Positions 24,127 through 54,056 of a stretch of DNA of 64,000 nt are shown here, one piece after another. A model generated the notes under the pieces. That model did no database searches. It had not been told where the DNA came from and was given only the letters and a program-made list of their open reading frames with translations. A program made the position numbers and the translations under genes. Where the stretch lies: NCBI GenBank assembly GCA_963707025.1, contig CAVPOM010000018.1:12507-76506 (forward strand), given 5' to 3'. How positions within the stretch are numbered: position 1 is the stretch's first letter; every line of letters begins with the position of its first letter. Origin of the DNA: an uncultured Verrucomicrobiae bacterium. Its GTDB lineage: Bacteria > Verrucomicrobiota > Verrucomicrobiia > Limisphaerales > Palsa-1400.

Positions 24127-24208
24127 CTTAATCTTAATCTTAATCCTAATCTTAATCTCTTTGGAGGATTTGGCGCATTAAGATTAAGATTAAGATTAGG
24201 ATTAGGAG
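24127..24208. repeat. Hexamer-repeat element, inverted pair (locus 1)
   Basis: Five units of CTTAAT/CCTAAT (24127..24156), a 17-nt spacer, then five units of ATTAAG/ATTAGG (24177..24206). Together these can form a roughly 30-bp stem with one mismatch. Confidence 0.9.
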
Positions 24209-24304
24209 AACAAACCGTTGAAGAAAGTGGCCTGCCCCGATTGCCGGGCCGGCGCAAACCCCGGCCTTGCCAAATGGGCGGCGGGAGTTAATGCTTTGTC
24301 CCCT

Positions 24305-25684
24305 ATGAAAAAATTGCCCTCTGCCTGTTGGCTGGCCTTGCCCGCGCTGGTCCTGGCCGCCTGTCAGACAACCCGCCAGCCGACCGCCATCGCCCAGCCC
24401 GGGCCCGTCGCACCGGCGGCGGCGCCGGCGGCTTACGAGACCAAACCGAGAGATCCTTATTTCGCCAAGTTCAATCCGCGCCTGGCCCCAGCCCCGGGAC
24501 CGCTGCTGCTGGAAGCGGGCGACCGCCTGGCCATCGTGGGGGATTCCATCACCGAGCAGAAAATGTATTCCCGCATCCTGGAGACTTACCTGACGGTGTG
24601 CGTGCCCCAACTGAAAATCACGGTGCGCCAGGTCGGTTGGAGCGGCGAAACGGCGGAAGGATTCCGCCGGCGGATGGAGTCCGATTGCCTGCGCTTCAAG
24701 CCGACCGTCGCCACTTTTGCCTACGGCATGAATGATTCCAAGTACCGGCCGTATGACGACATCAACGGGCAGTGGTATGCCTCCAACTATACGGCCATCG
24801 TGCGGGCCTTCAAGGCGGCCGGGGCCAGGGTTGTTCTCGGCTCGCCCGGTTCGCTCGGCACGCTCAACAAAGCGCGCAACGCCGGCGGCGGCACTTTGGA
24901 CGAGCGCAATTTGAATCTGTGCGCCATGCGCGACCTGGACGTTCGCATCGCGCAAAGCGAGGGGGTGCGCTTCGCGGACGTTTTCTGGCCGATGTTGCAG
25001 GCGGCCTACGAGGGTGAAAACCGCTACGGCACGGCCGACAAGCCCTTCGCGCTGCCCGGACCCGACGGACTTCATCCCAACTGGGCCGGGCATCTGGTCA
25101 TGGCGCATTGCTTCCTCCGGGCGCTGGGTCTGGACGGGGACATTGGCACTTTCACCGTGGATTTGAAGGGCGGACACGCCGAGGTCACCGCCGGGCATAA
25201 GATGGAGTCCTTTGCCAACGGCGAACTGGCCATCAGCAGCACGCGCTATCCGTTCTGCGATGGGGGGGCCAGCAACGCGACCAGCGCGATTCGCGGGGGC
25301 ATGTCGCTGGTGCCGTTCAACCGGGAACTCAACCGGCTCATGCTGGTGGTCAGGAACATCGGCGCGCCGCGCTGCCAGGTGATCTGGGGCGGCGTCACCA
25401 ATGCCTACCTGGCCGATCAACTCTCCGCCGGCATCAATCTGGCGGACGAGTTTGCGGTCAATCCCTTCTCGGAGGCTTTCCAGAAGGTGGACAAGGCCGT
25501 GGCCGCCAAGCAGGCCTACGAGACCCGGCAGATCAAGACCTCCTTTCACAGCGCGGAAGCCCGGACCAACATGGACGCGGTCGTCAGCAGGACGGAGGCG
25601 GAGCGCGCGCCGCTGGTGGAGGCGATGGCGGCGGCCTTCGTGCCGGTGCGGCATGTGCTGCGCCTGGTCCCCATGCAGGAATAG
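24305..25684 (+). CDS. SGNH/GDSL-family hydrolase lipoprotein
   Basis: MKKLPSACWLALPALVLAACQ is a lipoprotein signal. LAIVGDSITEQ (block I) and GLHPNWAGH (block V) are present. Confidence 0.75.
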   Translation: MKKLPSACWLALPALVLAACQTTRQPTAIAQPGPVAPAAAPAAYETKPRDPYFAKFNPRLAPAPGPLLLEAGDRLAIVGDSITEQKMYSRILETYLTVCVPQLKITVRQVGWSGETAEGFRRRMESDCLRFKPTVATFAYGMNDSKYRPYDDINGQWYASNYTAIVRAFKAAGARVVLGSPGSLGTLNKARNAGGGTLDERNLNLCAMRDLDVRIAQSEGVRFADVFWPMLQAAYEGENRYGTADKPFALPGPDGLHPNWAGHLVMAHCFLRALGLDGDIGTFTVDLKGGHAEVTAGHKMESFANGELAISSTRYPFCDGGASNATSAIRGGMSLVPFNRELNRLMLVVRNIGAPRCQVIWGGVTNAYLADQLSAGINLADEFAVNPFSEAFQKVDKAVAAKQAYETRQIKTSFHSAEARTNMDAVVSRTEAERAPLVEAMAAAFVPVRHVLRLVPMQE

Positions 25685-25708
25685 GACGGGCCGGGGCCGA
25701 TGGGGTTT

Positions 25709-25812
25709 CTTAATCTTAATCTTAATCATAATCTTAATCGCACTGGTGGTGATCAGAGATTAGGATTAGGATTAGGATTAGGATTAGGATTAAGATTGGG
25801 ATTGAAGATTGG
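25709..25812. repeat. Hexamer-repeat element, inverted pair (locus 2)
   Basis: Five CTTAAT-type units (25709..25738), then a spacer, then five ATTAGG units and one ATTAAG unit (25759..25794), then three degenerate units. Confidence 0.9.
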
Positions 25813-25839
25813 AGACGGATCGGACAAGGTGGGCCCACC

Positions 25840-27126
25840 ATGAGATATGCGCCGATAGACAAGGAATTGTTCCGGCTCAACCGGGCCAACCTGAAGAAAT
25901 TGCTGCCGCCCAACGCGCTGGCGGCGGTCAACGCCAATGATATTCTCCCGGTCAATGGCGACGCGGTTTTGCTGCTGCAGCAAAATTCGGACTTGTTTTA
26001 TCTGACGGGAATTGAACAGGAGGAAAGCCTGCTGCTGCTTTACCCGGAGGCCCACGAACCCAAGCATCGCGAGATTCTGTTCCTGCGCCAGCCCAATCCG
26101 CTGTTGGAAACCTGGGAGGGCCACAAGCTGACCAAGGAGGAGGCGCAAAAGATTTCCGGCGTGGAGCAGGTGCAATGGCTGCCGGATTTTCCGGCGCTGT
26201 TTCACCGGCTGATGTGCGAGTGCTCGCAGGTCTGGCTCAATTCCAACGAGCACAAGCGCGCCCGCGTGGTGGTGGAAAGCCGCGACGCCCGCTTCATCAA
26301 GGAGGTGCAGGCACGCTATCCCCTGCACGATTACCGCCGCCTGGCCCCGCTCCTGCACCGCTTGCGCGCCGTCAAGTCCGACGCCGAAATCGCCCTGCTG
26401 CGCCAGGCCTGCGCGATCACCGAGGCCGGTTTCCGGCGGGTTTGCCGGCTGGTCAAACCGGGGGTCAATGAGATGGAGGTGGAAGCGGAATTTTCCCGCG
26501 AATTTCTGCGGCGGGGCGGGCGCTTCGCCTACAACCCGATCATCGCCTCCGGGCGCAACGCCTGCGCCCTGCATTATGTGCAGAACGACCAGCCTTGCCG
26601 GAAAGGCGAGTTGTTGCTGCTGGACGTGGGGGCCAGCTACGCCAACTACAACGCGGACATGACGCGCACCATTCCGGTCAGCGGGCGGTTCACCCGCCGG
26701 CAAAAACAGGTCTATAACGCCGTCTTGCGGGTGCTGCGCGCCGTCAGCCGGGCGGCGGCGCCGGGGAAATTGCCGCGGGACTGGCAGACGGAGGCGGACC
26801 AATTGGTGGAAAAGGAACTGGTGGATTTGGGTTTGTTGACCCTGGCGGAGATCAAAAAACAGGATCCCGAGGACAAGGCCTTTCGCAAGTATTTTATGCA
26901 CGGCGTGGGCCATCCGCTGGGGCTGGACGTGCATGACCTGGCGCTGACGGTGGAACCGATCCAGGCGGGCTGGGTGCTGACGGTCGAGCCGGCCATTTAC
27001 CTGCGCGAAGAGGGATTTGGCGTGCGCCTGGAAAACAACATCCTTGTGCAAGAGGGCGGCAACGTGGACTTGATGGAAAGAATTCCCATCGAGGCCGGGG
27101 AAGTGGAGCGGCTGATGAGCCGGTGA
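25840..27126 (+). CDS. Xaa-Pro aminopeptidase (M24B family)
   Basis: Creatinase-like N-domain plus pita-bread fold, with LLLDVGASYANYNADMTRT, HGVGHPLGLDVHD and VEPAIYL...GVRLENN. Confidence 0.85.
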   Translation: MRYAPIDKELFRLNRANLKKLLPPNALAAVNANDILPVNGDAVLLLQQNSDLFYLTGIEQEESLLLLYPEAHEPKHREILFLRQPNPLLETWEGHKLTKEEAQKISGVEQVQWLPDFPALFHRLMCECSQVWLNSNEHKRARVVVESRDARFIKEVQARYPLHDYRRLAPLLHRLRAVKSDAEIALLRQACAITEAGFRRVCRLVKPGVNEMEVEAEFSREFLRRGGRFAYNPIIASGRNACALHYVQNDQPCRKGELLLLDVGASYANYNADMTRTIPVSGRFTRRQKQVYNAVLRVLRAVSRAAAPGKLPRDWQTEADQLVEKELVDLGLLTLAEIKKQDPEDKAFRKYFMHGVGHPLGLDVHDLALTVEPIQAGWVLTVEPAIYLREEGFGVRLENNILVQEGGNVDLMERIPIEAGEVERLMSR

Positions 27127-27141
27127 GGGCCGGCTCTTCCT

Positions 27142-27174
27142 CTTAATCTTAATCCTAATTTTAATCTCATAATC
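27142..27174. repeat. Hexamer-repeat element, single arm (locus 3)
   Basis: cttaatcttaatcctaattttaatctcataatc lies between the aminopeptidase stop and the next start. It shares CTCTTAATCTTAATCCTAAT with locus 5. Confidence 0.85.
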
Positions 27175-27192
27175 AACCAACGAGAGGAGCCA

Positions 27193-27621: not shown

Positions 27622-27686
27622 TGCGCTCCCGAAAAAGTCACCCCGTATCGGGGTTGACCATCGCGCCGCGGAATGCCGTCTTGGTT

Positions 27687-27775: not shown

Positions 27776-27860
27776 TTTCCCGGCCCGTCCAAGACAACCG
27801 CATTCTGGCGCGACGGCGTTTGGGCTTGACTGGGAGCAAAGCGGGCGTTTGACTCAGACC

Positions 27861-35988: not shown

Positions 35989-36656
35989 TGCGCTACTTTT
36001 ACCTCATTTTTTTTCTGACCTGCGTGACGGTGATCGGCCTGGCCGGTTTTCGCGGCAGCAAGTCGCGCCAGCCGCCCATTGAGCTGTTTAACGACATGGT
36101 GCGCCAAAACAAGGTGCGCCCGCAGACGCCGAGCGATTTCTTCGCCGACGGCCGCAGTTCGCGGGCGCGGCCCGAAGGCACGGTGGAGCGCAGCCTGCCT
36201 TATGAACTCAACGGCCAATTGGTGCTGGTCAACGGCAAACCGGTTTATCCCTACGAAGAGGCCCCCATGAACACCGGGCGGATGACGGGCACGACCAATT
36301 TCATCGAAACCGGCCCGCTGGCCATCACGCGGGAATTGCTGGACCGGGGCCAGGAGCGTTATCAGATTTATTGCCTGCCGTGCCACGGCCCGGCGGGAGA
36401 CGGCAAGGGGATCACGGGCAAATACGGCATGGTGAGCATGGCCGATTTTCACGCCCAGCGCCTGGTGGAGATGAAGGACGGTGAGATTTTTAATACCATG
36501 ACGGTCGGGAAATTGCCGCTCATGCCGGCCTACGGGGCGCTGCTTGGGGTGGAAGACCGCTGGGCGATCATCTCCTACATCCGCGCCTTGCAACGCAGCC
36601 AGTTGGCGACGGTGGAAGACGTGCCCGAGGCGAAACGGGGAGAATTTAAGAAATGA
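35988..36656 (+). CDS. actE: Alternative complex III subunit ActE, monoheme cytochrome c
   Basis: N-terminal anchor, a single CLPCH haem site and a distal Met region (MPAYG). TAATG overlap with actD. Confidence 0.85.
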   Translation: MRYFYLIFFLTCVTVIGLAGFRGSKSRQPPIELFNDMVRQNKVRPQTPSDFFADGRSSRARPEGTVERSLPYELNGQLVLVNGKPVYPYEEAPMNTGRMTGTTNFIETGPLAITRELLDRGQERYQIYCLPCHGPAGDGKGITGKYGMVSMADFHAQRLVEMKDGEIFNTMTVGKLPLMPAYGALLGVEDRWAIISYIRALQRSQLATVEDVPEAKRGEFKK

Positions 36657-36708
36657 GATTAAGATTAAGAAAAGAGATTAAGATTAAGATCAAGATTAAG
36701 AAATAAGG
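36656..36708. repeat. Hexamer-repeat element, single arm (locus 4), filling the actE-actF spacer
   Basis: gattaagattaagaaaagagattaagattaagatcaagattaagaaataagg starts at the actE stop codon and ends 8 nt before the actF ATG. Confidence 0.85.
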
Positions 36709-36716: not shown

Positions 36717-37988
36717 ATGAACAAGGACACTCCATCCTCATCGGTTGCGCCGCTGGATTTGGCCAAATGGCGGCATGTGCCCGTGATCTTGATGGCGGCG
36801 GGCGGGATCGGGGCGGGGCTGGGCGCGGCGGCCTGCGGGAGCCGGCAGTTCGCCTTTTCCTGGCTGGTGGCCTTCATGTTTTACTTGAGCTTGTGCCTGG
36901 GCGCCTGGTTTCTGGTGATGGTGCATCATTTGTTTGACGCAAACTGGTCGGTGCCGACGCGGCGGTTTTGCGAACACCTGGCCTGTCTGGCGGGCTGGCC
37001 GATGCTGCTGCTGTTTGTCCCCATTGCCGTCCTGGCGCCGCGCCTCTATGAATGGATGAACGAGCTGCGGCATCCGGATCATGCCTTGGCGGCCAAATAT
37101 CCGTTGTTCACCATGAAGGGTTTTTATATCGTGGCGGCGGTTTGCTTCGGCGTCTGGTGGCTCTTTACCAACCGTTTGCGGCACTGGTCGCTGCAGCAGG
37201 ACAAGACGGGCGCGGCCCATTGCATGCGCCGCATGCGGTTTTATTCCGCCCTGGGCATCATCCTTTTTGCGGGGACGCTCACCCTGGCCGCGATCGTGTG
37301 GATGAAGGGGCTGATGTATGAATGGGCCTCGACCATGTACGGGGTCTGGTATTTCGCGGCGAGCGTCTGGGTGGCGCTGGCCACAGTGTATGTCATTACG
37401 CTGATCTTGCAGCGCACGACGGCGTTGCGGGATGTGGTGACGGAAAAGACGTATTACATGATTGGCTCGCTCTTGTTCGCCTTTACCGTGTTCTGGGCCT
37501 ACATCAGCTTTGGGCAGTACTTTATCGTCTGGAACGCGAACATGCCGGAAGAGACCTTCTGGTACGTGCTGCGCGAAAAGGGGACGTGGTGGTTCACGGG
37601 GGCCATCATCATCATCTTCGGCCATTTCTTCCTGCCCTTTCTGGCGCTGCTGCGGATAGATGTGAAACTGAAGCTGGCGGCCATGCTGCCGTTGTGCGCC
37701 TGGGCCTGGCTCATGCACCTGGTGGACGTGGAGTTCCAAGTCATGCCCAGCCTGCATGAGAACGGGGTATTCACTTTCACCTTTCCCTTCCTGACGGCCA
37801 GCCTGCTGGTGGACTTGGCCTGCCTGATGTTCATCGGCGGATTCCTCGCCAAACTTTTTCTGTGGTCGCTCAACCGGCATCCCGTCTATCCCTTGCAGGA
37901 CCCGCGCATGGCGGAAGCTCTGGACGTTTATGTGCCGCCGGCCAGCGCCGCCGCCATTATTCCCGGTCCCGGGGTAAAAGAACTATAA
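36717..37988 (+). CDS. actF: Alternative complex III subunit ActF (second NrfD-like membrane subunit)
   Basis: Polytopic membrane protein, 423 aa, in the position expected for ActF. Confidence 0.85.
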   Translation: MNKDTPSSSVAPLDLAKWRHVPVILMAAGGIGAGLGAAACGSRQFAFSWLVAFMFYLSLCLGAWFLVMVHHLFDANWSVPTRRFCEHLACLAGWPMLLLFVPIAVLAPRLYEWMNELRHPDHALAAKYPLFTMKGFYIVAAVCFGVWWLFTNRLRHWSLQQDKTGAAHCMRRMRFYSALGIILFAGTLTLAAIVWMKGLMYEWASTMYGVWYFAASVWVALATVYVITLILQRTTALRDVVTEKTYYMIGSLLFAFTVFWAYISFGQYFIVWNANMPEETFWYVLREKGTWWFTGAIIIIFGHFFLPFLALLRIDVKLKLAAMLPLCAWAWLMHLVDVEFQVMPSLHENGVFTFTFPFLTASLLVDLACLMFIGGFLAKLFLWSLNRHPVYPLQDPRMAEALDVYVPPASAAAIIPGPGVKEL

Positions 37989-38002
37989 ATGATAAATGAA
38001 CC

Positions 38003-38371: not shown

Positions 38372-38434
38372 CGGCACAGAATTATAAATGATAAATGAAG
38401 AGGGCGAATGTTGCTTTGGGTGGTGCTTCCCTCT

Positions 38435-38609
38435 CTTAATCTTAATCCTAATCTTAATCTTAATCTCATTCGTGCAATCGGTAATCAGAATTGGCTTTGA
38501 TCAAGCCCACGAGCAGCGAAACGATGATATACTTGCAGCTTTTCGTGGTCGAAGACTCGATTCACTCGGATTAGGACGATTAAGATTAAGATTATGATTA
38601 AGATTAAGA
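38435..38609. repeat. Hexamer-repeat element, inverted arms flanking a 101-nt unique core (locus 5)
   Basis: Left arm 38435..38467 (CTTAAT/CCTAAT units), core 38468..38568, right arm 38569..38609. The stretch 38576..38603 is identical to 54025..54052 (28 nt). Confidence 0.85.
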
Positions 38610-38625
38610 CCAGGAGCAGATACCC

Positions 38626-40098
38626 ATGAGCGTGACTGAGGCACCAGCGGCAACGGCGGCAACGGCGGCTGGCCCGCAGGTTTCGAGGACCCAACTCGAA
38701 ACTTCCGGGGCGGTGCCGCTCCTGGGCCTGTTCGCCGGCGCGGCGGTCTGGCTCCTGCTGGGTTTGCTGCTGGCGCTGCTCTGTTCGCTCAAACTGCATG
38801 CCGCCGGCTTGCTGGCCTCCGGGCCGATGTTCACTTATGGGCGCGTCCACGCCGCGGCGGACACGGCGCTGCTCTATGGCTTTGGCGTTCCGGCCGCGCT
38901 GGGAACCGGGCTGTGGCTGCTCTGCCGCCTGGGGCGGACGCGATTGGCGGCGCCGGCGGTGGCCGCCGTGGGAGCGCTGGCCTGGAATGCGGCGGTGGCC
39001 GCGGGTCTCTGGGCCATCCTGCGCGGCGGCGGGACCGGCTACCAAGGGTTTGAGATGCCGGGGGCCATCGCGCCGGTTCTGCTGTTGTCGTACCTGCTGA
39101 TCGGAATCTGCGGGGTCGTCACCTTTGGGCAGCGGGAGGCGGGGCCGCTTTATCCGTCGCAATGGTTCGTGCTCGGGGCGCTTTTTTGGTTTGGGTGGAT
39201 TTTTTCCACGGCGGGGCTGCTGCTGCTGGGCGCGCCGGTGCGCGGCGTTCTCCAGGCCTTGGTCAACTGGTGGTATGAGCATAATCTGGGCACGGTGTTT
39301 TTTGGGTTTGCCGGGCTGGCTTCGATTTTTTATTTCATCCCCAAACTGACCGGGCGGCCGCTGCACAGTTATTATCAGGCGGCGCTGGCGTTCTGGATGC
39401 TGGCGCTGGCGGGCAGTTGGGGCGGAATTCCCGGCGGCGCGCCGCTGCCGGGCTGGCTGGTCAGCGTGTCCGTGGCGGGGACGGTGCTGACGGTCATCCC
39501 CATCGCGGCGGTGGCGATGAATTTGTATTTGACGGTGAGAGGGGAGGCGCTGGCGCGGGAGGCCTGCCCCAGCCTTCGTTTCACCTGCGCGGGCCTGATT
39601 TTTTGGGTGATCGCCAGCGCGCAGGAGGTGGCGGGGGCGCTGCCGTCGGTCGGGGCGCTGACCGATTTCACCTGGTTCACCACGGCGCAACGGGACCTGT
39701 TCCGCTACGGTTTCGTGGGGATGACGATGTTCGGGGCGATTTATTACATCGTGCCGCGGCTGGCCGATGCCAAGTCCGCCGCGCCGGACGGACTGTGGAA
39801 AGGGTGGTTAAGCCAATGGCATTTCCGGCTGATGCTGGCGGGGGTGGTGATTGGATACATGGCCTTGCTGGTGGCGGGCGTCTGGGAGGGAGTGGAGTTC
39901 CAAAGCCCCGCCCATTCGTTCGCGGCGGTGATGAGGGGCACGATGATGGCGCTGCGCCTGAGCACGCTGGGTCCCCTGTTGCTCACGCTGGGGATGATCG
40001 CCTTTCTGCTGAATTTTGCGCTGCTGCTGAAAGGTTGCTGCGCCCGCTGCCGCCGGGAAAGATGGGGCGGCCGGGAGATGCGAAAGGGGGACGCATGA
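38626..40098 (+). CDS. CcoN-like (cbb3 oxidase subunit I-like) membrane protein lacking most metal-ligand histidines
   Basis: Colinear similarity to CcoN: FTYGR...LLYGFG, LYPSQWFVLGA, NWWYEHNLGTVFFGFAGLASIFYFIPKLTGRPLHSY, LTDFTWFT...YGFVGMTMFGAIYYIVPR, SQWHFRL. There are only six His in 490 aa. The CuB HH site reads GGIPGG and the haem HxH site reads TAQRD. Confidence 0.8.
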   Translation: MSVTEAPAATAATAAGPQVSRTQLETSGAVPLLGLFAGAAVWLLLGLLLALLCSLKLHAAGLLASGPMFTYGRVHAAADTALLYGFGVPAALGTGLWLLCRLGRTRLAAPAVAAVGALAWNAAVAAGLWAILRGGGTGYQGFEMPGAIAPVLLLSYLLIGICGVVTFGQREAGPLYPSQWFVLGALFWFGWIFSTAGLLLLGAPVRGVLQALVNWWYEHNLGTVFFGFAGLASIFYFIPKLTGRPLHSYYQAALAFWMLALAGSWGGIPGGAPLPGWLVSVSVAGTVLTVIPIAAVAMNLYLTVRGEALAREACPSLRFTCAGLIFWVIASAQEVAGALPSVGALTDFTWFTTAQRDLFRYGFVGMTMFGAIYYIVPRLADAKSAAPDGLWKGWLSQWHFRLMLAGVVIGYMALLVAGVWEGVEFQSPAHSFAAVMRGTMMALRLSTLGPLLLTLGMIAFLLNFALLLKGCCARCRRERWGGREMRKGDA

Positions 40099-40868
40099 AC
40101 AACGGGCCGATGCTTTATTTGGGATTGTTTGCCGCGATGGCGATTTCGTGGGTAACCTTTGTACTCGGCCCGCAGGTGCAAATGGCCGGCCTGCTGCCCG
40201 CCCGGACGGTGGGGTCGCTGCCGGTCAGTTATCCGAACACCCCGCCCGGCCTGGCGCGGCAGGGGGCCGAGGTGTACCGGGCCTGCGGGTGCGTCTATTG
40301 CCATACCCAGCAGGTCCGCCCCGAGGAGCTGGGCTCGGACTTGGCCCACGGCTGGGGCATCCGGCGGAGCGTGGCGCATGACTACATTTATGATCGTCCG
40401 GTCCTGCTGGGCACGCAGCGGGTCGGGCCGGACCTGGCCAATGCGGGGTTGCGCATGGATGCCATGGCCGTGCTGGTGCGGCTGTGGGATGCCCGCACCA
40501 TCAATCATCTGGACGCCGCCCATTCCATTATGCCGTCCTACAAGTATTTGTTTGAAGTGCGCAAAATCGGGCGGATGCCATCGCCCGACGCCCTGGTGGT
40601 TGCGCCGCAATTTGCGGCGGCGCCAGGTTATGAGATTGTGCCGCGGCCGGCGGCGCGCGCCCTGGCGGCGTATGTGGCGAATATGCGCCAGGAGCCGTAT
40701 CTTTTTGAAGCACCGCCGCCGCCGGGTGCGATCAACACCAACACGCCGGCGGGAGGAACCAACGCGCCGGCCGGCGGGACCAATGCGCCGGCGGGAGGCA
40801 CCAATGCACCCGCGGCGGGCAGCGGAGCGCCCGGCCTGCCTGGCGGCACGAATGCGGCCAAACCGTAA
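40095..40868 (+). CDS. CcoO-like monoheme cytochrome c subunit (cbb3 subunit II-like)
   Basis: ATGA overlap with the upstream gene. TM anchor, then GAEVYRACGCVYCHTQQVRP (CxxCH), RRSVAHDYIYDRPVLLGTQRVGPDLANAG and MPSYKYLF. The C-terminal tail carries three PAGGTNA repeats. Confidence 0.8.
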   Translation: MNNGPMLYLGLFAAMAISWVTFVLGPQVQMAGLLPARTVGSLPVSYPNTPPGLARQGAEVYRACGCVYCHTQQVRPEELGSDLAHGWGIRRSVAHDYIYDRPVLLGTQRVGPDLANAGLRMDAMAVLVRLWDARTINHLDAAHSIMPSYKYLFEVRKIGRMPSPDALVVAPQFAAAPGYEIVPRPAARALAAYVANMRQEPYLFEAPPPPGAINTNTPAGGTNAPAGGTNAPAGGTNAPAAGSGAPGLPGGTNAAKP

Positions 40869-40884: not shown

Positions 40885-40933
40885 ATTAAGATTGAGAATG
40901 GAGATTAAGATTAGGATTAAGATTAAGATTAGA
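40885..40933. repeat. Hexamer-repeat element, single arm (locus 6)
   Basis: attaagattgagaatggagattaagattaggattaagattaagattaga lies between the CcoO-like stop and the cytochrome c start. Confidence 0.85.
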
Positions 40934-40950: not shown

Positions 40951-41577
40951 ATGAACCAGAATCCTCCAGAGCCAGCCGCCGCTGTGGAACGGGATGAGCC
41001 TGCCGTCGGGCCGTCGGCTGTTCCCATCTGGCTGATTCTTCTGCTGGGCTTGCTGGTTTACTGGGGATTGAATTATGTCAATGAGCACGGCGGCTGGTTC
41101 AATGCGCAAGTTTATGAGCCGTTCACCACCTATGCGGAAGTGGCGCAATGCCAGCCGCACAATCCGGAAGGTGACTATCTGGCGTTGGGCGAGTCGGTGT
41201 TTAAAGAATCCTGCATTCTGTGCCATCAAGCCAATGGCGCGGGCAAGGAAGGCCAGTTCCCGCCGCTGGCCGGGTCGGACTGGCTGAATGCACCGGGGCC
41301 AAACCGGATCGTCCGCATTGTTTTGAACGGCCTGACCGGGCCCATCCGGGTTGAAGGAGGTCCCAACGGCCCGGTCGGCCTCAATGCCACCATGGCGCCG
41401 CTGGGAGGCACTTACACCGATGAGAAAGTGGGGGCGGCCTTGACCTACGTGCGCCAGCAGTGGGGCAACAAAGCATCGAAGATCACGCCCGATCAGGTCA
41501 GAACCATCCGGGAAGCGATCAAAGCGCATCCCGCGCCGTTCACGCCGGATGATTTGTTGAAGATTCCGGTGCAATAA
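40951..41577 (+). CDS. Membrane-anchored class I monoheme cytochrome c
   Basis: TM segment IWLILLLGLLVYWGL. Haem site CILCHQANGAG, then PPLAGSDWL and a distal MAPLG. Confidence 0.8.
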   Translation: MNQNPPEPAAAVERDEPAVGPSAVPIWLILLLGLLVYWGLNYVNEHGGWFNAQVYEPFTTYAEVAQCQPHNPEGDYLALGESVFKESCILCHQANGAGKEGQFPPLAGSDWLNAPGPNRIVRIVLNGLTGPIRVEGGPNGPVGLNATMAPLGGTYTDEKVGAALTYVRQQWGNKASKITPDQVRTIREAIKAHPAPFTPDDLLKIPVQ

Positions 41578-41641
41578 GAATAGTGAATTGAGAATTGAGA
41601 ATAGTGAAGTTTCTGAATTCTCAATTCTACATTCTCAATTC
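41578..41641. terminator. AT-rich imperfect hairpin built from GAATTGA-type repeats, between convergent genes
   Basis: gaatagtgaattgagaattgagaatagtgaag-tttctg-aattctcaattctacattctcaattc, with core stem GAATTGAGAAT/ATTCTCAATTC. It lies between the cytochrome c stop (41577) and the M20 peptidase stop (41635). Confidence 0.5.
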
Positions 41642-43105: not shown

Positions 43106-43182
43106 CCTAATCTTAATCTTAATCTTAATCTTAATCTTAATCCTAATCCTAATCCGCTGGCACGAAGCAGATTAAGATTGGG
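43106..43182. repeat. Hexamer-repeat element (locus 8): long left arm, short right arm
   Basis: Eight CTTAAT/CCTAAT units (43106..43153), spacer cgctggcacgaagcag, then attaagattggg (43171..43182). Confidence 0.9.
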
Positions 43183-43240: not shown

Positions 43241-45038
43241 TTACTTCAGGGCCAGAACTTTGCGCTCGTTGTCAAATTCGAGCGTGACGGAGGAAGGGCC
43301 GATGGCCACGACGGTCGCGCCCGCGGGAAGCCGGTCTTGCGGCCGCACCCGCCTGCCGCTGATGACGGCGGTGGGGTTGCTTTGGGAATAGAAGATGGAT
43401 TGCAATCGCAAATTGGCAAAGGCCAGGTCCTTGGCCGTGGGAGGCGGCGGCGCGGCGGGAGGGGTTTCCACGGGCGCGGTCACCGCAGGGGGAGCCTCCG
43501 CGACTTTGACCGGAGGAGCCACGGGCGCCGGGGCGGGGGCAGGAGGCGTGACGTCGGCGACGGTGACGGGCGGCTTTGCAGCCATGTTCTTGTCCGGTGG
43601 CACTGCCGGCGGCAGCGCCAGGCGCAAGAAAGCTTGTGTGCCCAGGAGGAAAGTGAGAACAAACAGCACGACCAGGATGCCCGGCGTAAACCCAACGCTG
43701 CCGCGGAATGGAAAAAACAGCCGGGAGGGCGGGCGCTGGCTTGACCGGCTTGGGCGCCGGCTTGGGCGCCGGCTTGGGGCTGGCCGCGGCGGGCTTTTTG
43801 GCGGCGCCGCTTTCGCCGGGCCGGGTGCGGGCTTCGGGGCCTTCCAATTCCGGTGTCAGGACCATTTCGCGCCAGTATTGCAACCGGCCGTCCAGTCCCA
43901 AATCGGCCAGGTAGGCCTCATCAACTTGGGCGGGGACATAGCCTTCCTTGTCCGGCTTGGCTTCATAAAGCAGGGCATTGGCCACATGGACGGCGGTCAG
44001 CGGGGTGAAGCGTTTGGACAGGCAGCGGGACGGGTTGTGATGGAGGGCGGCCGCTTCCACCAAGTCCAGCGGCATCCCCCACAGCCCCAGCAAATAGGCC
44101 CCGATCTCGCCGTGACTGGCCCCAAAAATCTGCTTCTCCACTTCCCAGAGCGGGATTTGCTGCCGGCGCGCCAGCGCCTGGGCGCCGCTGTACTGCTCGT
44201 CAAAGTTGGAGGCCAGCACCAGCTTGCCCAAATCATGCATCAAGCCCGCCGTGAAAGCCGACTCGGCCAGCACCGGGTCATCCTGCTGGGTGAAAGCCAG
44301 CCGGCGGCTGATCCGCGCCACCTCCGTGCTGTGGCGCCACAGCCGGTCAATGGAAAAATACACCGGCTTGACTTTATCGTACTGACTGAGAAGTTTGAGC
44401 GTGATGACCATGGACTTGACCGTCTCAAAACCGAGGATGCCGACCGCCTCCACCGGGTCGCTGATCTTGCGCGGCAATCCGAAACAGGCCGAATTGGTCA
44501 CCTGCAGCAGCTTGGTCATCATGGCCATGTCCTTGGCGATGATCGCCCCCACTTCGGCCGTGGTGGTGTGCGGGGATTTCAGGGCGTTGATCACTTCCAG
44601 GTAAAGGGAGGGGACAATGGGGAAGGTGCGCAGACGGGAGATCAGTTCGCGCAGGCTGTCGTTGGTCAGCCAGAGGTCAATGGACAGGGCCCGTTCGATG
44701 GCGTTTTTCAGGGTCTCGCTGTCGCACGGCTTGGTCAAAATCAGGTGCGATCCTTCCACGTCGGCCATCCGGTTTTCCTTGTCCAGCTCTCCGGCCAGCA
44801 GAATGCGGATGGTTTTGGGATATTCGGCATGGACTCGATCCAATAATTCGACTCCCTCGTTGGCTCCCGGCAAGGCGCAATCGGCCACCAGCACATCGCT
44901 GGGGTGGGCGGCCATTTCAGCCAGGGCTTCGTTCGGGCTGGCCACTAATTTGACTGTCCACTCCTTCCCCAGGGCGCGGCCGTATTCCTCCAGCGTGGGC
45001 GGATCAGCGTTCGCGATTAAAATGTGTTTATTGCCCAT
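43241..45038 (-). pseudogene. Response-regulator receiver + HDOD domain protein; the C-terminal TM/GspC-like part is in another frame (frameshift, or a separate small gene)
   Basis: Receiver (HILIANADPP...VLVADCALPG...TKP) and HDOD (...LLQVTNSACFGLPRKISDPVEAVGILGFETV...HDLGKL...). After KPAPALPAVF the frame turns into Arg-rich nonsense. The frame of ORF 43241..43669 reads FFPFRGSVGFTPGILVVLFVLTFLLG...AFANLRLQSIFYSQSNPTAVISGRRV...VTLEFDNERKVLALK. The candidate switch is the T6 run (A6 on the plus strand) at 43712..43717. Confidence 0.7.
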
Positions 45039-47401: not shown

Positions 47402-47706
47402 GGTTTGAATTATTTGAATTCCTGAAACGTGCCGCCAAACTACACCAGGGCTGTGGCAATGAAACTGCAAAATGGGGGGCGGGAGCGGCAAAGCGGCGCG
47501 GTCGCCCGCGCACTCCTTGACCTGCCGCCACATCGGCCGCGCGCCCGGAACGCCAAGCACCGTGGAGCGCTTAAGGCCGGTTCCGCTGTGGCCCGGACGC
47601 AGGCGTGGTCGCCCCATCTGGAGAAGTCTGTCCCAGACCCGGCCCATTTGTTTTCGCGTGGAATAATTTGCCAACCCCTGACCCAAAGGCTTACTATTCC
47701 GCCCCT

Positions 47707-49215
47707 ATGAGAAGGATTGCAACCCTGGCGTTTTTGCTGGCCCTGGCCGGCGTGGCTCTGGCTGCCGGGCCGGACGATGATTTTTTGGTTATCTACACTC
47801 AAATCCAGCGGGCGGACGCCCTCCAAAAAGGCGGCCAATTGCCGGCCGCGGCCACTGAATATCTCCACGCCCGCGAGGCCTTGCAAAAATTGCACGCCGA
47901 TTTCCCGGCCGCCAACGCGGCGGCGGTTACCTACCGGCTGGATTACCTGGCGGACAAGCTCAAGGAACTCGCCCCCTACCTCCCTTCGGCCAACGCTGGC
48001 GCCGCCGCCCCCAAACCGGCCGTCCCTCTGACCCCCCAACAGCAGGCGGCCATGTGGCAGGAAGAAATCAGTGCTTTGACCAAAGACAAGGCCGAGTTGG
48101 AAATGAAACTCAAGGACACCCTTTCCGCCCAACAGCAGGCCGCGATGTTGCAGGAAAGAATCGGCCAGTTGACCAACGCCAATGCCCGGTTGGAGATGAA
48201 ACTCAAGGAAGCCCTTTCTGTCCAGCCGGCCGCGGTCGCCCCCGATGAATTGGCCAAGGCCCGGGCGAGAATCACTGATCTCGAAAAAGAGCGCGACCTC
48301 CTCAAGGTTACCCTGGAGCAACAAAAGGCGGCCAAACCCGGCGCCAAACCATCGGCCTCCAACGCCGACGCCGACAAGCTCAAGGCGGTGGAAAAGGAGA
48401 GGGACGACTTGAAGAAACAGATCGCCGCCATGAAACCAGGTCCCCCGCCTCAGCGCGCCACGGCGTCGGCCGCCGGCTCCAGCGCGGAACTCGAATCGTT
48501 GCGCGCGCGCCTGGCCGTGCTGGAAGCCGCGGCGGTGCCCTATACCGCCGAAGAACTGGCCGTGCTGAAAAGTTCGCCTTCCGCCGGTCTGCCCGCTGCT
48601 CCCTTGGCCGCGAAGGAACTCCCGTCCAAGGCGCATTCGGTCAAGGATTTGTCTTTCGGCCTCGTCGCCATTATGCGGCAGGCGCGGGGGGACGCCGAGG
48701 CGCGGCGTTACGCCGACGCGGAAAAAGAATATCTCCAAGTGCTCCGGCAGGATGAGAACAACGTGGATGTGCTCTACTACCTCGGCCATGTCCAGTTTGC
48801 CGCCGGCCGTCTGGACGATTGCGAAAAAACGGTGCATCGCGCCCTCGCCCTCGCCCCCAACGACCCCGGCAACCTTTATTTGCTCGGCATTTTGCGCTAT
48901 GGCCAGGAGAAACTGGACGACGCCCTCGATGCCTTGAGCCGGTCCGCCGCCCTCAACTCGACCAACGCCGCCACCCAATTCTCCCTCGGCAGCGTTTTGG
49001 CCGCCAAAGGATTGCGCGCCGAGGCGCAGACGGCCTTCCGCAAAGCCCTGGAGATAGACCCGGCCTTCGCCGATGCCCACTTCAACCTCGCCTTGGTCTA
49101 TGCGGCGGAGAAGCCGCCCTCCCTGGCGCTGGCCCGCTGGCATTATCAGAAGGCGGTTGATGATGGCCATGAAAAGAGCGACAAGCTGGAAAAAATGCTG
49201 GCCGAAGGAAAATAA
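47707..49215 (+). CDS. Secreted TPR-repeat protein with a coiled-coil middle region
   Basis: Signal peptide MRRIATLAFLLALAGVALAAG, duplicated QQQAAM(W/L)QE...LEMKLK(D/E) segments, and C-terminal TPR repeats. Confidence 0.75.
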   Translation: MRRIATLAFLLALAGVALAAGPDDDFLVIYTQIQRADALQKGGQLPAAATEYLHAREALQKLHADFPAANAAAVTYRLDYLADKLKELAPYLPSANAGAAAPKPAVPLTPQQQAAMWQEEISALTKDKAELEMKLKDTLSAQQQAAMLQERIGQLTNANARLEMKLKEALSVQPAAVAPDELAKARARITDLEKERDLLKVTLEQQKAAKPGAKPSASNADADKLKAVEKERDDLKKQIAAMKPGPPPQRATASAAGSSAELESLRARLAVLEAAAVPYTAEELAVLKSSPSAGLPAAPLAAKELPSKAHSVKDLSFGLVAIMRQARGDAEARRYADAEKEYLQVLRQDENNVDVLYYLGHVQFAAGRLDDCEKTVHRALALAPNDPGNLYLLGILRYGQEKLDDALDALSRSAALNSTNAATQFSLGSVLAAKGLRAEAQTAFRKALEIDPAFADAHFNLALVYAAEKPPSLALARWHYQKAVDDGHEKSDKLEKMLAEGK

Positions 49216-49667: not shown

Positions 49668-50490
<823 letters not shown>

Positions 50491-50495
50491 ACCGG

Positions 50496-51434: not shown

Positions 51435-51476
51435 GGCCGCAAACTATTCCACTCGAGCCGCACACGCCAGAACAAA

Positions 51477-53353: not shown

Positions 53354-53471
53354 GGTTGCATTCTGTCAGAAGCATCCCCGCGCCGCAAGACGGGTTTGGA
53401 GGCACAAATCACCCCACCGCGTCCAGCCGGAACCAGGGCGAAACCGATCAAAAATCGGCCCGTTTATTGAC

Positions 53472-53495
53472 AGCGGCGGTCATAGACCCGCCGCT
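53472..53495 (-). terminator. Possible terminator hairpin downstream of the glutaredoxin-like gene
   Basis: AGCGGCGG-tcatagac-CCGCCGCT is an 8-bp GC stem. No clear U-tract follows. Confidence 0.3.
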
Positions 53496-53530
53496 ACAGG
53501 CGCGCGCAAACCTGCTCCCCAACCGGCCCG

Positions 53531-53872
53531 TTACGTCTTGAACCGGATGTGGGCGGGCGCGGCGGGCGTCTCGTGGGCGCAGGCCTGGTTGGTGGGCGCT
53601 TCGGGCACGCGCTCGTTGGGGCTGATCAGCGCGCTGGCCAGCAGATAAGCCTCCACTTCCTCCCCGCTCACGTCCGGCAGCATCTTGCCGTTGACTTCCA
53701 CGCAGGGGCTTAACATTTGGCCGGTCTTCTCAATCATTTCCTGGCGTTGCGCCGGGTCGTTGATGATGTCGCGGTCCTCGAAAGGCAGGTCGTATTTGCG
53801 CAGCACGGCGCGCACGCCCTGGCTCCAGCCGCAACTGGGTTTCAAATAAGCGATGATCTTGGGCTTTTCCAT
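53531..53872 (-). CDS. Glutaredoxin-like / thioredoxin-fold protein
   Basis: MEKPKIIAYLKPSCGWSQGVRAVLRKYDLPFEDRDI...SPCVEVNGKML is a glutaredoxin-like fold with an SCGWS active-site region. Confidence 0.7.
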   Translation of the reverse strand: MEKPKIIAYLKPSCGWSQGVRAVLRKYDLPFEDRDIINDPAQRQEMIEKTGQMLSPCVEVNGKMLPDVSGEEVEAYLLASALISPNERVPEAPTNQACAHETPAAPAHIRFKT

Positions 53873-53953
53873 ATTCCAATCAATTCAGATTTACCAACAC
53901 GTCCATTCTGCCACAGATCACGCGATTGGCAACCTCCTATCTTCAGGGGGGTT

Positions 53954-54056
53954 CTTAATCCTAATCCTAATCCTAATCCTAATCCTAATCTTAATCTCAA
54001 TCCTCAGGATCCCAGAAGGAGATTACGATTAAGATTAAGATTATGATTAAGAATCA
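53954..54056. repeat. Hexamer-repeat element, inverted pair (locus 9)
   Basis: Eight CTTAAT/CCTAAT units (53954..54001), spacer cctcaggatcccagaagg, then a right arm of ATTACG/ATTAAG/ATTATG units (54020..54056). Confidence 0.9.

Follow-up and report, generated by a model that had tools for sequence, protein, structure and literature searches.

Intergenic GATTAN hexamer repeats in a Verrucomicrobiae genome: a conserved family that recurs across PVC bacteria

The closest described kind of element to the repeats reported here is the intergenic family built from 6-7-nt units, as represented by the cyanobacterial STRR and the Xanthomonas GGGAATC repeats. The initial annotation of this DNA suggested a likeness to REP elements and to the ends of MITEs. 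However, REP elements carry a GTAG/CGTC tag and GC-rich palindromes of 20-40 nt, and the copies described here have neither; MITEs have outer terminal repeats and a target-site duplication, neither of which was noted by eye in these copies. The REP-like and MITE-like labels are thus not upheld for them. The motif is absent from Rfam, and a paper describing it was not found in the literature.

In the window – the whole 64,000-nucleotide stretch analysed here – tandem hexamers of the form YTAATC (Y arms) or of the complement GATTAR (R arms) are present at eight loci, all of them in the region from 24 to 54 kb. Dimer matches to YTAATCYTAATC number 41 in the window compared to 0.01 expected from shuffles, while outside the eight clusters only 7 copies of the hexamer were found (both strands summed), where base composition predicts approximately 27, or 13.3 on each strand. 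Every locus listed in the initial annotation was recovered at its coordinates by TRF and by motif matches (Table 1), and, as it had noted, no hexamer cluster is present at 1-24 kb or 54-64 kb. All eight hexamer loci fall within the gaps of a gene map based on third-position GC and backed by Pfam: they are, as claimed, strictly intergenic. The five loci described as containing both orientations (24127, 25709, 38435, 43106 and 53954) do so, and as RNA are predicted to fold into A-U hairpins of -27 to -70 kcal/mol, with z from -4.5 to -8 in every pair but that at 43106, where z is -2.1.

Table 1. Hexamer and heptamer arrays of the window, their neighbours and their predicted RNA folds (kcal/mol; z).
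Element	Position	Strand	Arrangement	TRF array (period)	Neighbouring genes	Predicted fold
1	24127..24208		Y arm (CTTAAT x3, CCTAAT, CTTAAT) - 24-nt loop - R arm (ATTAAG x3, ATTAGG x2)	24126-24204 (6)	M48 protease gene stop 24093; GDSL hydrolase gene putative TTG start 24218	-37.7; z -6.2
2	25709..25812		Y arm (5 units) - 18-nt loop (GCACTGGTGGTGATCAGA) - R arm (GATTAG x5, GATTAA, then degenerate GATTGG/GATTGA units)	25708-25803 (6)	GDSL gene stop 25684; aminopeptidase P gene start 25840	-48.8; z -7.9
3	27117..27174	+	G+C-rich hairpin 27117-27136 across aminopeptidase P stop codon, then single Y arm 27142-27174	27141-27167 (6)	Y arm 19 nt before ATG at 27193	z -2.9
4	36656..36708	+	single R array (GATTAA units, interrupted) filling ActE-ActF spacer	36656-36701 (6)	from last base of ActE stop codon to 9 nt before ATG at 36717; alternative complex III operon	-5.4; z -1.0 (essentially unstructured)
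5	38435..38609		Y arm 38435-38467 - 101-112-nt insert - R arm 38569-38609	38434-38466 + 38578-38609 (6)	R arm ends 17 nt before ccoN/COX1 ATG at 38626	-69.6; z -7.2
6	40885..40933	+	single R array, starting past true CcoO/FixO stop	40885-40931 (6)	ccoO/FixO (stop 40868); cytochrome c gene (ATG 40951)	z +0.8 (unstructured)
Heptamer	41578..41641		inverted arrays (GAATTGA/GAATAGT ... TCAATTC), different, related unit type	41577-41641 (7)	convergent: cytochrome c stop 41577; M20 peptidase stop 41635	-23.6; z -4.4
8	43106..43182	-	short Y arm - loop - long R array (8 units), read on minus strand, the sense of both neighbours	43108-43154 (6)	98 nt upstream of M20 peptidase start (43008); 90 nt past HDOD response-regulator stop (43272)	-27.4; z -2.1; 14-bp hairpin + free R tail
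9	53954..54056		Y arm (7 units) - 24-nt loop - R arm	53956-54052 (6)	DAHP synthase gene stop 54093, minus; glutaredoxin gene start 53872, minus	-49.2; z -4.5 (minus strand, sense)
ATAAATG mini-array	37982..37999	+	heptamers		after ActF stop	
Second ATAAATG mini-array	38377..38398	+	heptamers		after stop of 122-aa gene, just upstream of element 5	

Among arrays not picked by our own search pattern, the first five positions of the unit are nearly fixed (G1 99%, A2 100%, T3 93%, T4 93%, A5 96%), whereas the sixth is free (A 50, G 26, C 16, T 8%). The best explanation is that GATTAN repeats are a large conserved family of intergenic repeats, with the unit GAUUA (complement UAAUC) every six bases. 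That the loci are not independent microsatellites had been argued from shared strings. The common entry string CTCTTAATCTTAATC is present at 24125, 27140 and 38433, and a 28-nt string is identical at 38576-38603 and 54025-54052. However, when sixth bases were permuted among units, 300 of 300 permutations gave a string of at least 28 nt shared between loci (mean 33; observed maximum 38), and the 28-mer alone is therefore no proof of copying. What stands is membership of one dispersed family: the loci are not independent because the motif recurs genome-wide and across taxa.

The same motif was found in at least 114 genome contigs – approximately 70% of those classified being labelled Verrucomicrobiota, Planctomycetota, Kiritimatiellia or Lentisphaerae – and in metagenomes and GC-rich viral contigs. 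The closest protein homologues of the window agree with the placement in Verrucomicrobiota assumed by the initial annotation. It is thus abundant beyond the window, to which the initial annotation had allowed that it might be confined, and recurs across PVC (Planctomycetes-Verrucomicrobia-Chlamydiae) bacteria and some of their likely phages. Local slippage and a species-specific mobile element were rejected as explanations, given this recurrence and conservation at orthologous sites.

Orthologous spacers of close relatives hold the same arrays, including the GATTATG variant unit, and not the unrelated sequence that had been envisaged as the alternative. R arrays occupy the ActE-ActF spacer in the window and in L115, L116, L118 and L237; L119 has two GATTAR units there, and L120 and L121 have no array. 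A Y-loop-R element lies upstream of ccoN in the window, L116 and L237, the L116 orthologue of element 5 having the same arms and a 31-nt loop. Compared to L237, a 93.4%-identical relative, the Y arm and insert of element 5 are 100% identical, and element 6 is identical at 48 of 49 bases, with 4 changes in the next 10 nt. Over all arrays 167 of 172 positions are identical (268 of 273 counting the element-5 insert), that is 97-98%, against 88.5% for third codon positions (P = 4e-5 without and 2e-9 with the insert). Judged by these identities, the arrays are under purifying selection.

Analysis of arrangement shows that paired arms are organized as Y-loop-R in 67 cases and as R-loop-Y in 7. Within pairs the length of one arm shows no correlation with that of the other (rho -0.03), and the variant units of one arm have no mirror image in its partner: full pairing is thus not maintained. 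At five of the eight window loci the sense-strand distance from the end of the R arm to a start codon is 9-28 nt, and among bacterial R-sense arrays 10 of 21 end 9-15 nt before a start compared to 15% expected (P = 4e-4; starts in fetched loci from a crude third-position-GC caller), often running in register into GGAGG or AGAGG. Purine-arm arrays lie right against ribosome-binding sites in the window and, in phage contigs, 2-30 nt ahead of start codons. This points to an action on the 5' side of genes, an option missing from the earlier list of candidates; the roles on that list – RNA stabiliser or terminator, protein-binding array, MITE ends – all stay candidates, and the initial interpretation as a whole is partly supported. 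Among single arms on bacterial chromosomes there is no significant preference relative to co-directional neighbours (29 R-sense, 21 Y-sense), and arms within 20 nt of a start (12 of 29 R-sense vs. 4 of 21 Y-sense) do not differ significantly (P = 0.13). A Y-sense array stands just upstream of several credible genes, including the window gene at 27193, and convergent, divergent and co-directional spacers carry elements roughly in proportion to background.

Predicted folding around starts (-40 to +20) is weaker for six array-adjacent genes than for 32 other genes (-4.6 vs. -13.2 kcal/mol; P = 7e-4), as follows automatically from A/T richness. A sense strand is defined for four window pairs, and in all four its RNA folds as well as or better than the antisense, by 1-16 kcal/mol: by 4 for element 1, by 16 for element 2 (because of G-U pairs) and by 15 for element 9 (array-trimmed segment). 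Across taxa the sense transcript is not the better-folding strand (15 vs. 10). In the predicted folds the stem bases of window pairs include the ribosome-binding site: CUCU pairs with GGAG just upstream of the start in element 1, and the outer pairs of element 5 sequester AGGAG. At element 3 a CU-rich run before the array pairs with the GAGGAG ribosome-binding site.

Likely phages use the motif in one sense: every single array close to a start in the GC-rich viral contigs is R-sense, 15 of 15 when counted by array and 5 of 5 by contig. One contig, L211, encodes a major head protein and has six near-identical arrays, (GATTAA)2 GATTAN GAGTAA GATTAAGA, of which five stand 2-30 nt ahead of a plus-strand start and the sixth 109 nt ahead, the start of the major head gene being among those so preceded; related GAGTAA and GATTAA leaders precede other genes.

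The reading we tentatively favour, at somewhat less than an even chance, is that of a transcribed element acting on RNA, in which the purine-rich arm would be an unstructured leader by the ribosome-binding site and the complementary arm would form a hairpin that punctuates or masks. Being almost C-free, (GAUUAR)n should be unable to self-fold, and would provide an open A/U-rich leader that runs straight into the ribosome-binding site of the next gene, favouring ribosome loading. The pyrimidine arm, (YUAAUC)n, would be its built-in antisense. With both arms on one transcript, an A-U hairpin of 20-35 bp could form between cistrons. As a stem protecting the 3' side, and a likely substrate of RNase III, it would mark where the upstream message stops, and its CU-rich/AG-rich base could also mask the downstream ribosome-binding site. 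Only in the order Y-loop-R does a gene reading outward, on whichever side it lies, have an R arm facing it, which would explain the near-uniform order of pairs. We counted for this reading the unit constraint, purifying selection, kept position in relatives, proximity to starts, use by phages, open initiation regions, the hairpins, the Y-loop-R arrangement and the unstructured R-only arrays. Counted against it were the absence of a chromosomal strand preference and of a cross-taxon sense-fold advantage, the unmaintained pairing, the use of all spacer types, the dependence of low start folding on A/T richness, and the crude start caller. The strict five-base word also suggests a sequence-specific reader that this RNA model does not name, which counts against it.

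The arrays could instead be selfish repeats of REP, MITE or microsatellite type, spread by transposition, gene conversion and slippage and tolerated with no host function, their conservation reflecting concerted evolution: we regard this as somewhat unlikely. In Akkermansia and peat Verrucomicrobiota the hexamer hairpin is embedded in longer, lineage-specific palindromes resembling MITEs; unit number differs by whole units between close relatives, period-12 and period-18 sub-patterns within arrays are the product of slippage, and sister genomes have different unit types in the same spacer. Relatives at 68-73% protein identity have no arrays, their operons working with junctions that are 4-6 nt or overlapping, and the occupation of all spacer types and uncorrelated arm lengths fit as well. 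Slippage alone, however, is insufficient where substitutions gather at position 6 and not at 1-5, and arrays and element-5 insert are far better kept than synonymous sites in the 93% relative. REP and MITE sequences are as a rule confined to one species, but this word is retained from phylum to phylum; the window copies lack outer terminal repeats and target duplications; a phage has placed six copies precisely before start codons; and no transposase or RAYT gene was noticed in an unsystematic look. That the repeat tracts are assembly or sequencing artefacts is effectively refuted: low-complexity A/T-rich tracts can in principle be mis-assembled, but no evidence of this was found, and independent assemblies made from other samples and with other technologies (L116, L118 and the long-read contig L237) have these arrays at identical places. 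The arrays also turn up in more than a hundred unrelated contigs of genomic, metagenomic or viral origin.

A word with five fixed positions and one free looks like a recognition word rather than a mere hairpin, and its retention across a superphylum would suit double-stranded DNA sites of a PVC-wide protein (a nucleoid-associated protein or global regulator) that reads GATTA and polymerises in 6-bp register. E. coli Fur, which is reported to do so on GATAAT hexamer arrays of either orientation, is a precedent for such an array-binding protein. Chromosomal single arms without significant orientation to transcription and the use of all spacer types agree with this; the strong Y-loop-R bias could mirror dimer geometry, and arm mismatches make poor DNA cruciforms, so that pairing need not be the point. 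We nevertheless judge such sites improbable. A symmetric duplex site does not predict phage-like contigs with R-sense arrays only, 2-48 nt from start codons; R-sense arrays concentrate at 9-15 nt ahead of starts and keep register with the ribosome-binding site; the genes downstream are unrelated housekeeping genes and hence not a regulon; arrays lie inside tight operons; heptamer arrays with other words can replace the hexamers at orthologous spacers; and no candidate protein was identified. Quite improbable is a role in stopping transcription, with the Y arm either supplying a U-rich tail to a small terminator hairpin rich in G+C or offering Rho a G-free loading site, or with the A-U hairpin terminating or pausing RNA polymerase. 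At element 3 a terminator-like stem of 8 pairs (6 of them G-C, then TTCCTCTTAA) spans the stop codon, with TTCCTC and the Y array directly after it; in L115 a long G+C-rich palindrome takes the place of this element in the spacer after the aminopeptidase P gene. Weaker stems precede Y arms at 25693 and 27125, the arms are G-free with a UC/CC dinucleotide every 6 nt, and the 41578 heptamer hairpin sits between convergent genes. Yet no U run follows the R arms, convergent spacers are not enriched (14 of 67 vs. 10-13 expected), arrays lie inside operons that need co-expression (alternative complex III and cbb3 oxidase genes), and R-only arrays and phage leaders are left unexplained.

The heptamer hairpin at 41578 has a similar counterpart at the same place in L115 and L237, and evolves at about the neutral rate (85.9% identity). 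In L115 and L119, orthologous spacers hold AAATGAT arrays in place of the hexamers; the two ATAAATG mini-arrays are of that class.

Tandem Repeats Finder confirms all the loci named in the initial annotation: eight in 30 kb with period-6 arrays of 4.5–8.2 copies, and a related heptamer hairpin with period-7 arrays. The dimer pattern YTAATCYTAATC matches the window 41 times, as against 0.01 expected from dinucleotide-preserving shuffles. Almost all hexamer copies lie within eight clusters between 24.1 and 54.1 kb, with seven isolated copies outside them, and a hexamer count over the window bears out the earlier remark that the first 24 kb and the last 10 kb are free of clusters. Intergenic placement also holds: in a gene map drawn from third-position G+C, then checked with Pfam, every locus falls in a spacer, locus 40885 being downstream of the true CcoO stop at 40868. 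The adjoining genes are those for an M48 protease, a GDSL hydrolase, aminopeptidase P, a small exported protein, an M20 peptidase, an HDOD response regulator, DAHP synthase and glutaredoxin, together with an alternative complex III operon and a cbb3-type oxidase cluster. Both orientations are present at the five loci for which they had been described, each a Y array followed by the complementary R array and foldable as a long A-U hairpin; three loci have a single arm.

Positions of hexamer elements and other repeats in the window and in fetched contigs (L-numbers). Y, (YTAATC)n; R, (GATTAR)n
Feature	Source	Position	Content
Element 1	window	24127-24208	Y then R
Element 2	window	25709-25812	Y then R
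Element 3	window	27117-27174	single Y at 27142
Element 4	window	36656-36708	single R
Element 5	window	38435-38609	Y then R
Element 6	window	40885-40933	single R
Element 8	window	43106-43182	Y then R
Element 9	window	53954-54056	Y then R
Heptamer hairpin	window	41578-41641	period-7 arrays at 41577-41641
Element 5 insert	window	38468-38568	101 nt
Palindrome in element 5 insert	window	38493-38507	GGCTTTGATCAAGCC
Region of the frame opened by the GATTATG unit	window	38594-38629	11-codon frame
Counterpart of 11-codon frame	L116	about 11703-11741	
Heptamer mini-array	window	37982-37999	ATAAATG type
Heptamer mini-array	window	38377-38398	ATAAATG type
Inverted heptamer hairpin	L115	11701-11820	
Heptamer repeats	L119	8360-8400	
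Inverted heptamer hairpin	L119	10050-10170	
Akkermansia-type copy	L008	4518-4650	
Akkermansia-type copy	L008	4714-4834	
Akkermansia-type copy	L086	5141-5255	
Akkermansia-type copy	L030	878-1010	
Akkermansia-type copy	L025	2769-2973	
ARAGORN tRNA call	window	43745-43825	tRNA-Pro(GGG)
HDOD response-regulator ORF	window	43272-45038	minus strand
CcoO/FixO coding repeats	window	40737-40821	21-nt, GGTNAPA-like
Junction repeats	L116	13974-14013	AATCCGC
Junction repeats	L118	about 13870-13895	AATCCGC
Tandem duplication	window	48035-48218	93 nt, 2 copies
ORF containing the duplication	window	47605-49215	plus strand
G+C-rich palindrome	L115	1115-1240	GGCAGGGCGGGCAGTCCCCTGCCCGCC...
Spacer repeats	L116	880-1130	CAACCCTGGG/AACCCTG type

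A search for the motif beyond the window, as the initial annotation had advised, was made in one genome per GTDB species with four consecutive TAATCY units required, and gave matches in at least 114 contigs. Among the matches listed, 72 of the 114 contigs carry a label from the Planctomycetes-Verrucomicrobia-Chlamydiae (PVC) phyla, and since these phyla make up a few percent of species the enrichment is very strong. The label is Verrucomicrobiota for 55 of the 114 listed (Akkermansia, Chthoniobacter flavus Ellin428, Lentimonas and Methylacidiphilales included), Planctomycetota for 10, Kiritimatiellia for 4 and Lentisphaerae for 3; 13 are unclassified and the remainder are scattered. Odd labels – GC-rich gut bins called Klebsiella or Bifidobacteriaceae, for example – may be binning errors. 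Carriers of the motif include a cultured isolate, C. flavus Ellin428, as well as MAGs classified as A. muciniphila; that the repeat tracts are an artefact is excluded by the same arrays in independent assemblies. A metagenome scan gave at least 120 stretches, 84 of those listed being GC-rich, and a scan of viral sequences gave 115, of which 14 are GC-rich; the other 101, AT-rich and mostly from giant-virus bins, were discounted as ordinary microsatellites. Rfam has no match in the window at the gathering threshold; at a permissive E-value the sole hits to the elements are generic models of A-U hairpins (miRNA precursors, Phe_leader, HepC_CRE), which score far below threshold. A literature search with the repeat 12-mers as strings found them in no relevant paper, and a keyword search on PVC repeats found nothing specific. 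The genome paper on the verrucomicrobial methanotroph M. fumariolicum SolV lists 54 short tandem repeats of 27.9% G+C, with no further analysis (PMC4210602): the composition, by G+C only, is suggestive of the GATTAN unit.

In arrays not chosen by the search pattern, the first five bases of the purine-strand unit are G (99%), A (100%), T (93%), T (93%) and A (96%), and the sixth is free (A 50, G 26, C 16, T 8%); degenerate neighbouring units such as GAGTAA and GAGCAA retain GA and A. This variable base decides how a 28-nt string identical at two window loci should be read. The string exists as described, as does an entry string common to several loci, but the 28-nt identity is no valid argument for copying: when the sixth base is permuted, identical strings of at least 28 nt between such arrays are expected by chance.

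Pairs of arms are found in the order Y-loop-R in 67 cases and R-loop-Y in seven (among the matches listed). The loop, usually 13–33 nt, is not conserved in sequence, and no common motif was found in loops, which are diverse except in one Akkermansia family. Arm lengths within pairs are uncorrelated (rho -0.03), and variant units fall differently in the two arms, which are thus not mirror images. Elements in the other contigs lie mostly outside called genes (106/124 and 88/99, among the matches listed) and occupy co-directional, convergent and divergent spacers in roughly background proportions (46/14/7 among the matches listed, compared with 324/73/67), with no bias towards any of these spacer types. 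The five paired window loci have predicted folding energies of -27 to -70 kcal/mol (z from -4.5 to -8 in four, -2.1 in the fifth), and in the predicted hairpins of the window a CU-rich run before the Y arm pairs with the ribosome-binding site; R-only window arrays are predicted to be unstructured. The sense strand is favoured in the fold of all four window pairs that have a defined sense strand, and across taxa the comparison of sense with antisense folding as a test of RNA-level selection (15 vs. 10) is not significant.

At five window loci the R arm ends 9–28 nt before a start codon on the sense strand, with GGAG, AGGAG or AAGG directly 3' of the arm. From -40 to +20 the six array-adjacent genes fold at -4.6 kcal/mol, compared to -13.2 kcal/mol for 32 other genes (P = 7e-4): this weak structure is largely a product of composition. 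In other bacterial contigs, 10 of 21 R-sense arrays among the matches listed end 9–15 nt before a start, as opposed to an expected 15% (P = 4e-4). Y-sense arrays too stand upstream of credible genes in bacterial contigs; with the metagenome loci (at least 120) included, the strand preference of single arms is a trend only (29 R-sense vs. 21 Y-sense), and the difference in placement within 20 nt of a start (R-sense 12/29, Y-sense 4/21, among the matches listed) is not significant (P = 0.13). In the window, an 11-codon frame (MIKIK...) is opened by the rare GATTATG unit of the R arm upstream of ccoN, and its TGA overlaps the ATG of ccoN (ATGA). The overlap is also found, with a different intervening sequence, in the syntenic relative L116; the frame may serve as a mini-ORF for coupling, or may be due to chance, since one frame in three would match.

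The start-codon signal is clearest in GC-rich viral contigs, where every single array close to a start codon (15 of 15, in 5/5 contigs) has the R-sense orientation. One of these sequences, the IMG/VR contig L211 (1-12614, G+C 62%), is a block of phage structural genes that includes the major head protein. It carries six near-identical 30-nt arrays, (GATTAA)2 GATTAN GAGTAA GATTAAGA, each upstream of a gene: five lie 2–30 nt from a plus-strand start, that of the head gene among them, and one lies 109 nt away. Further genes on it are preceded by GAGTAA arrays, by related GATTAA leaders or by a single GATTAAGAAAGGAAA leader.

Syntenic loci were reached via homologues of the ActF-like protein (86–68% protein identity), and a contig 93.4% identical in DNA (L237) was added. 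R arrays occupy the ActE-ActF spacer in the window, L118 and L237; they follow (AAAGGCT)n in L115 and L116, two R units follow (AAATGAT)n in L119, and in L120 and L121 only 4–6 nt, without an array, separate the genes. The spacer before ccoN holds a Y arm, about 110 nt and an R arm in the window and in L237, the same arms with a 31-nt loop in L116, a hairpin of inverted AAATGAT heptamers in L115 and L119, and nothing in L118, L120 and L121. The comparison of orthologous spacers that had been recommended thus finds arrays common to close relatives and absent from distant ones, and in the two spacers compared the elements are lineage-specific additions, stable in position in close relatives and exchangeable in unit type.

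Compared with L237, codon positions 1, 2 and 3 are 96.0%, 97.5% and 88.5% identical. The hexamer arrays are 97.1% identical (167/172; P = 4e-5 against the third-position rate), or 98.2% with the insert of element 5 included (268/273; P = 2e-9), a single array has changed in unit number, by exactly one unit, and such substitutions as the arrays have accumulated fall at position 6. The heptamer hairpin at 41578 has changed at about the neutral rate. Given that array identity exceeds third-position identity, the arrays are under purifying selection on the time scale of this divergence. The element 5 insert is by itself 100% identical in this relative and holds a perfect palindrome; it may contain the cbb3 oxidase promoter or operator, or else a small RNA.

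The nearest described kind of repeat is the intergenic family of 6–9-nt simple-sequence repeats known from Xanthomonas, Nostoc and, as STRR, cyanobacteria: a tandem unit of 6–9 nt, many dispersed and mainly intergenic loci, and a unit that is lineage-wide are all found here. The heptamers GGGAATC of Xanthomonas and GGGGAYT of Nostoc occur as arrays of, typically, about 4 copies or more. Each genome has some hundreds of these intergenic loci, near stop or start codons, in conserved locations beside unrelated housekeeping genes and without IS association, and in Xanthomonas 70–75 pairs of nearby arrays per genome have convergent inverted orientation (Rehm et al. 2015, PMC4692102). Tandem 6–7-nt units, intergenic position, many inverted pairs and unrelated housekeeping neighbors are common to both, whereas the GATTAN family differs in period (6 rather than 7) and in having a word common to a superphylum rather than a genus. 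The Xanthomonas and Nostoc units are also G-rich and have been studied as G-quadruplex formers, whereas GATTAN units are A/T-rich (17–33% G+C in a genome of 61%) and cannot form quadruplexes. Use by phages just before start codons, as seen in the GATTAN family, is not reported for these heptamers (PMC4692102). Heptamer arrays (AAATGAT, AAAGGCT, GAATTGA) accompany the hexamers in the window lineage. The STRR heptamers were reportedly described by Mazel et al. in 1990 (cited in PMC4692102) as short tandemly repeated repetitive sequences of Calothrix and Nostoc. STRRs are short tandem units, dispersed between genes in about a hundred copies per genome and lineage-wide: by description the GATTAN arrays are likewise a dispersed intergenic short-tandem-unit family, although STRRs are heptamers of other sequence.

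REPs, a further class of repeat, are species-specific and mobilised by RAYT transposases. They are imperfect palindromes of 20–40 nt, rich in G+C, that carry a GTAG or CGTC tag (PMC3733652). Like the REPs and BIMEs of proteobacteria – for which mRNA 3' stabilisation, termination and protein binding have been proposed – the elements are high-copy extragenic palindromes, often in inverted pairs. Membership was rejected: the arms consist of A/T-rich hexamers repeated in tandem a variable number of times, no tag stands at either end of the window elements, and the word is common to phyla. Pfam annotation of 20 window proteins includes no transposase domain, and no RAYT was seen. Correia elements of Neisseria are small palindromic intergenic MITEs, co-transcribed with their neighbors and processed by RNase III, and a likeness to MITEs of this type exists in Akkermansia and peat Verrucomicrobiota, where the hexamer hairpin is embedded in longer lineage-specific palindromes with terminal inverted repeats. 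The window copies were rejected as MITEs, the five paired loci having no outer terminal repeats, flanking direct repeats or target-site duplication, and arms that vary in unit number; as to recent transposition, arrays are absent in distant relatives and positionally stable in close ones, and their shared strings are explained by chance. Phase-variation microsatellites were set aside on account of the 6-nt units, the intergenic position, the housekeeping neighbors and the high conservation in the 93% relative. Each array contains words resembling a sigma-70 promoter (TAAGAT/TAATCT, TAnnnT), but with no -35 at usable spacing; a consensus scan puts no promoter on the arrays, which also vary too much in their distance from start codons. 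By inspection, for CsrA sponges (GGA), TRAP-like sites (GAG/UAG triplets), the Hfq ARN motif, and CtrA and CcrM sites, the word fails or only units with certain sixth bases fit.

Tentatively, we favor a transcribed element that acts on mRNA. The R arm would provide a leader that stays open, poor in C and rich in A/U, right next to the ribosome-binding site. The Y arm would be its antisense, and the two would pair into a hairpin between cistrons, where the upstream message would end and the start downstream would be masked or gated. Transcription of the elements, ribosome loading, masking and cleavage by RNase III are steps that we infer. Among the models examined this one alone accounts for the Y-loop-R rule: no other order gives an outward-reading gene on either side an R arm, and a gene reading inward gets a Y arm after it. 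Such an element would work like two known devices, the A/U-rich translational enhancers or ribosome standby sites (unstructured leaders just upstream of the Shine-Dalgarno sequence, targets of ribosomal protein S1) and the intercistronic RNase III hairpins of phage T7 (long hairpins between cistrons that define mRNA ends), although known A/U-rich enhancers, unlike GATTAN arrays, are not fixed hexamer repeats. A more far-reaching proposal, which we think unlikely, is that (GAUUAN)n is a previously unrecognised expression signal of the whole PVC superphylum that loads ribosomes through a sequence-specific reader (protein S1, rRNA or a dedicated RNA-binding protein), with (NUAAUC)n as its built-in gate or processing site, and that phages copy the signal for their structural genes.

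That the arrays are instead selfish, or maintained by slippage without host function, is somewhat improbable: purifying selection and the position-specific constraint within the unit count against it, even if MITE-like embedding in other genomes, exchange of units at orthologous spacers and the dispensability of arrays in relatives are what it would predict. The free sixth base can also be read at the level of duplex DNA, as the mark of a protein that polymerises along the array in a 6-bp register. Fur-box arrays, (GATAAT)n, are the precedent: they have the same register, specify five positions and leave one free, combine direct with inverted units, and use a similar word (GATAAT vs. GATTAA). 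The weak orientation bias in chromosomes would fit. However, the Fur regulon consists of tens of promoter sites at iron-related genes, whereas GATTAN arrays stand at an estimated hundreds of sites, beside unrelated housekeeping genes, within operons and upstream of genes for phage capsids. A duplex-DNA role is decidedly unlikely in view of the phage data and of arrays being in register with ribosome-binding sites. Very little probability attaches to the elements being termination signals: intrinsic terminators were rejected because the stems consist of A-U pairs and the R arm has no U run behind it; in the window, element 3 alone has a G+C stem of its own, with a U-rich Y arm after it.

To our knowledge, the signals for translation and mRNA processing in Verrucomicrobiota and Planctomycetota have hardly been studied, and the genetic tools available for these phyla lag. 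Should the hexamers tune ribosome loading or cut operons into separate messages, they would constitute a new type of bacterial expression signal, and would offer a part ready for use in the engineering of Akkermansia and planctomycetes. The role of bacterial intergenic 6–7-nt repeat families, a question since the STRRs of 1990, is now testable because here there is clear positional logic, purifying selection, phage use, and presence in A. muciniphila MAGs and C. flavus Ellin428. As a marker of composition, the motif points strongly to PVC contigs in metagenome bins; annotators should mask the arrays, which produce spurious ORF ends.

Several other repeats were noted. A second A/T-rich heptamer family (ATAAATG / AAATGAT / AAATGCT, and the related AAAGGCT) is represented in the window by just two mini-arrays after stop codons, and forms full inverted hairpins in relatives at spacers that have hexamer elements in the window. 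Akkermansia-type copies are palindromic and MITE-like, about 130 nt long; their outer arms read TGGCGCTAAGTTAAG...CTTAACTTAGCGCCA, and they share a loop, TACTGGTGGAGAACG, with which the loop GCACTGGTGGTGATCAGA of window element 2 has ACTGGTGG in common. Repeats in the coding sequence for the C-terminal part of CcoO/FixO, and heptamers across the ccoO/cytochrome c junction in relatives, show that short tandem repeats in this lineage are not confined to non-coding DNA. A tandem duplication (80% identical) inside an ORF is unrelated to the hexamers. The ARAGORN tRNA call falls within the HDOD response-regulator ORF, which Pfam supports, and coincides in part with a tandem repeat of 12 nt; Rfam has no tRNA there, and the call is probably a false positive. 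In L115 a long G+C-rich palindrome follows the aminopeptidase P gene, in the spacer of window element 3, and in L116 a neighboring spacer contains repeats of another type. Some hexamer-bearing genomes (L018, L024 and L045, which are one Anaerolineae-labelled MAG; L104; L031; L002) have many other intergenic 6–7-nt arrays, with AATGCGT, ACTGATC, ACCTGCC, AAACGTG, AAAGCC and other units, which suggests that certain lineages are generally prone to such arrays.
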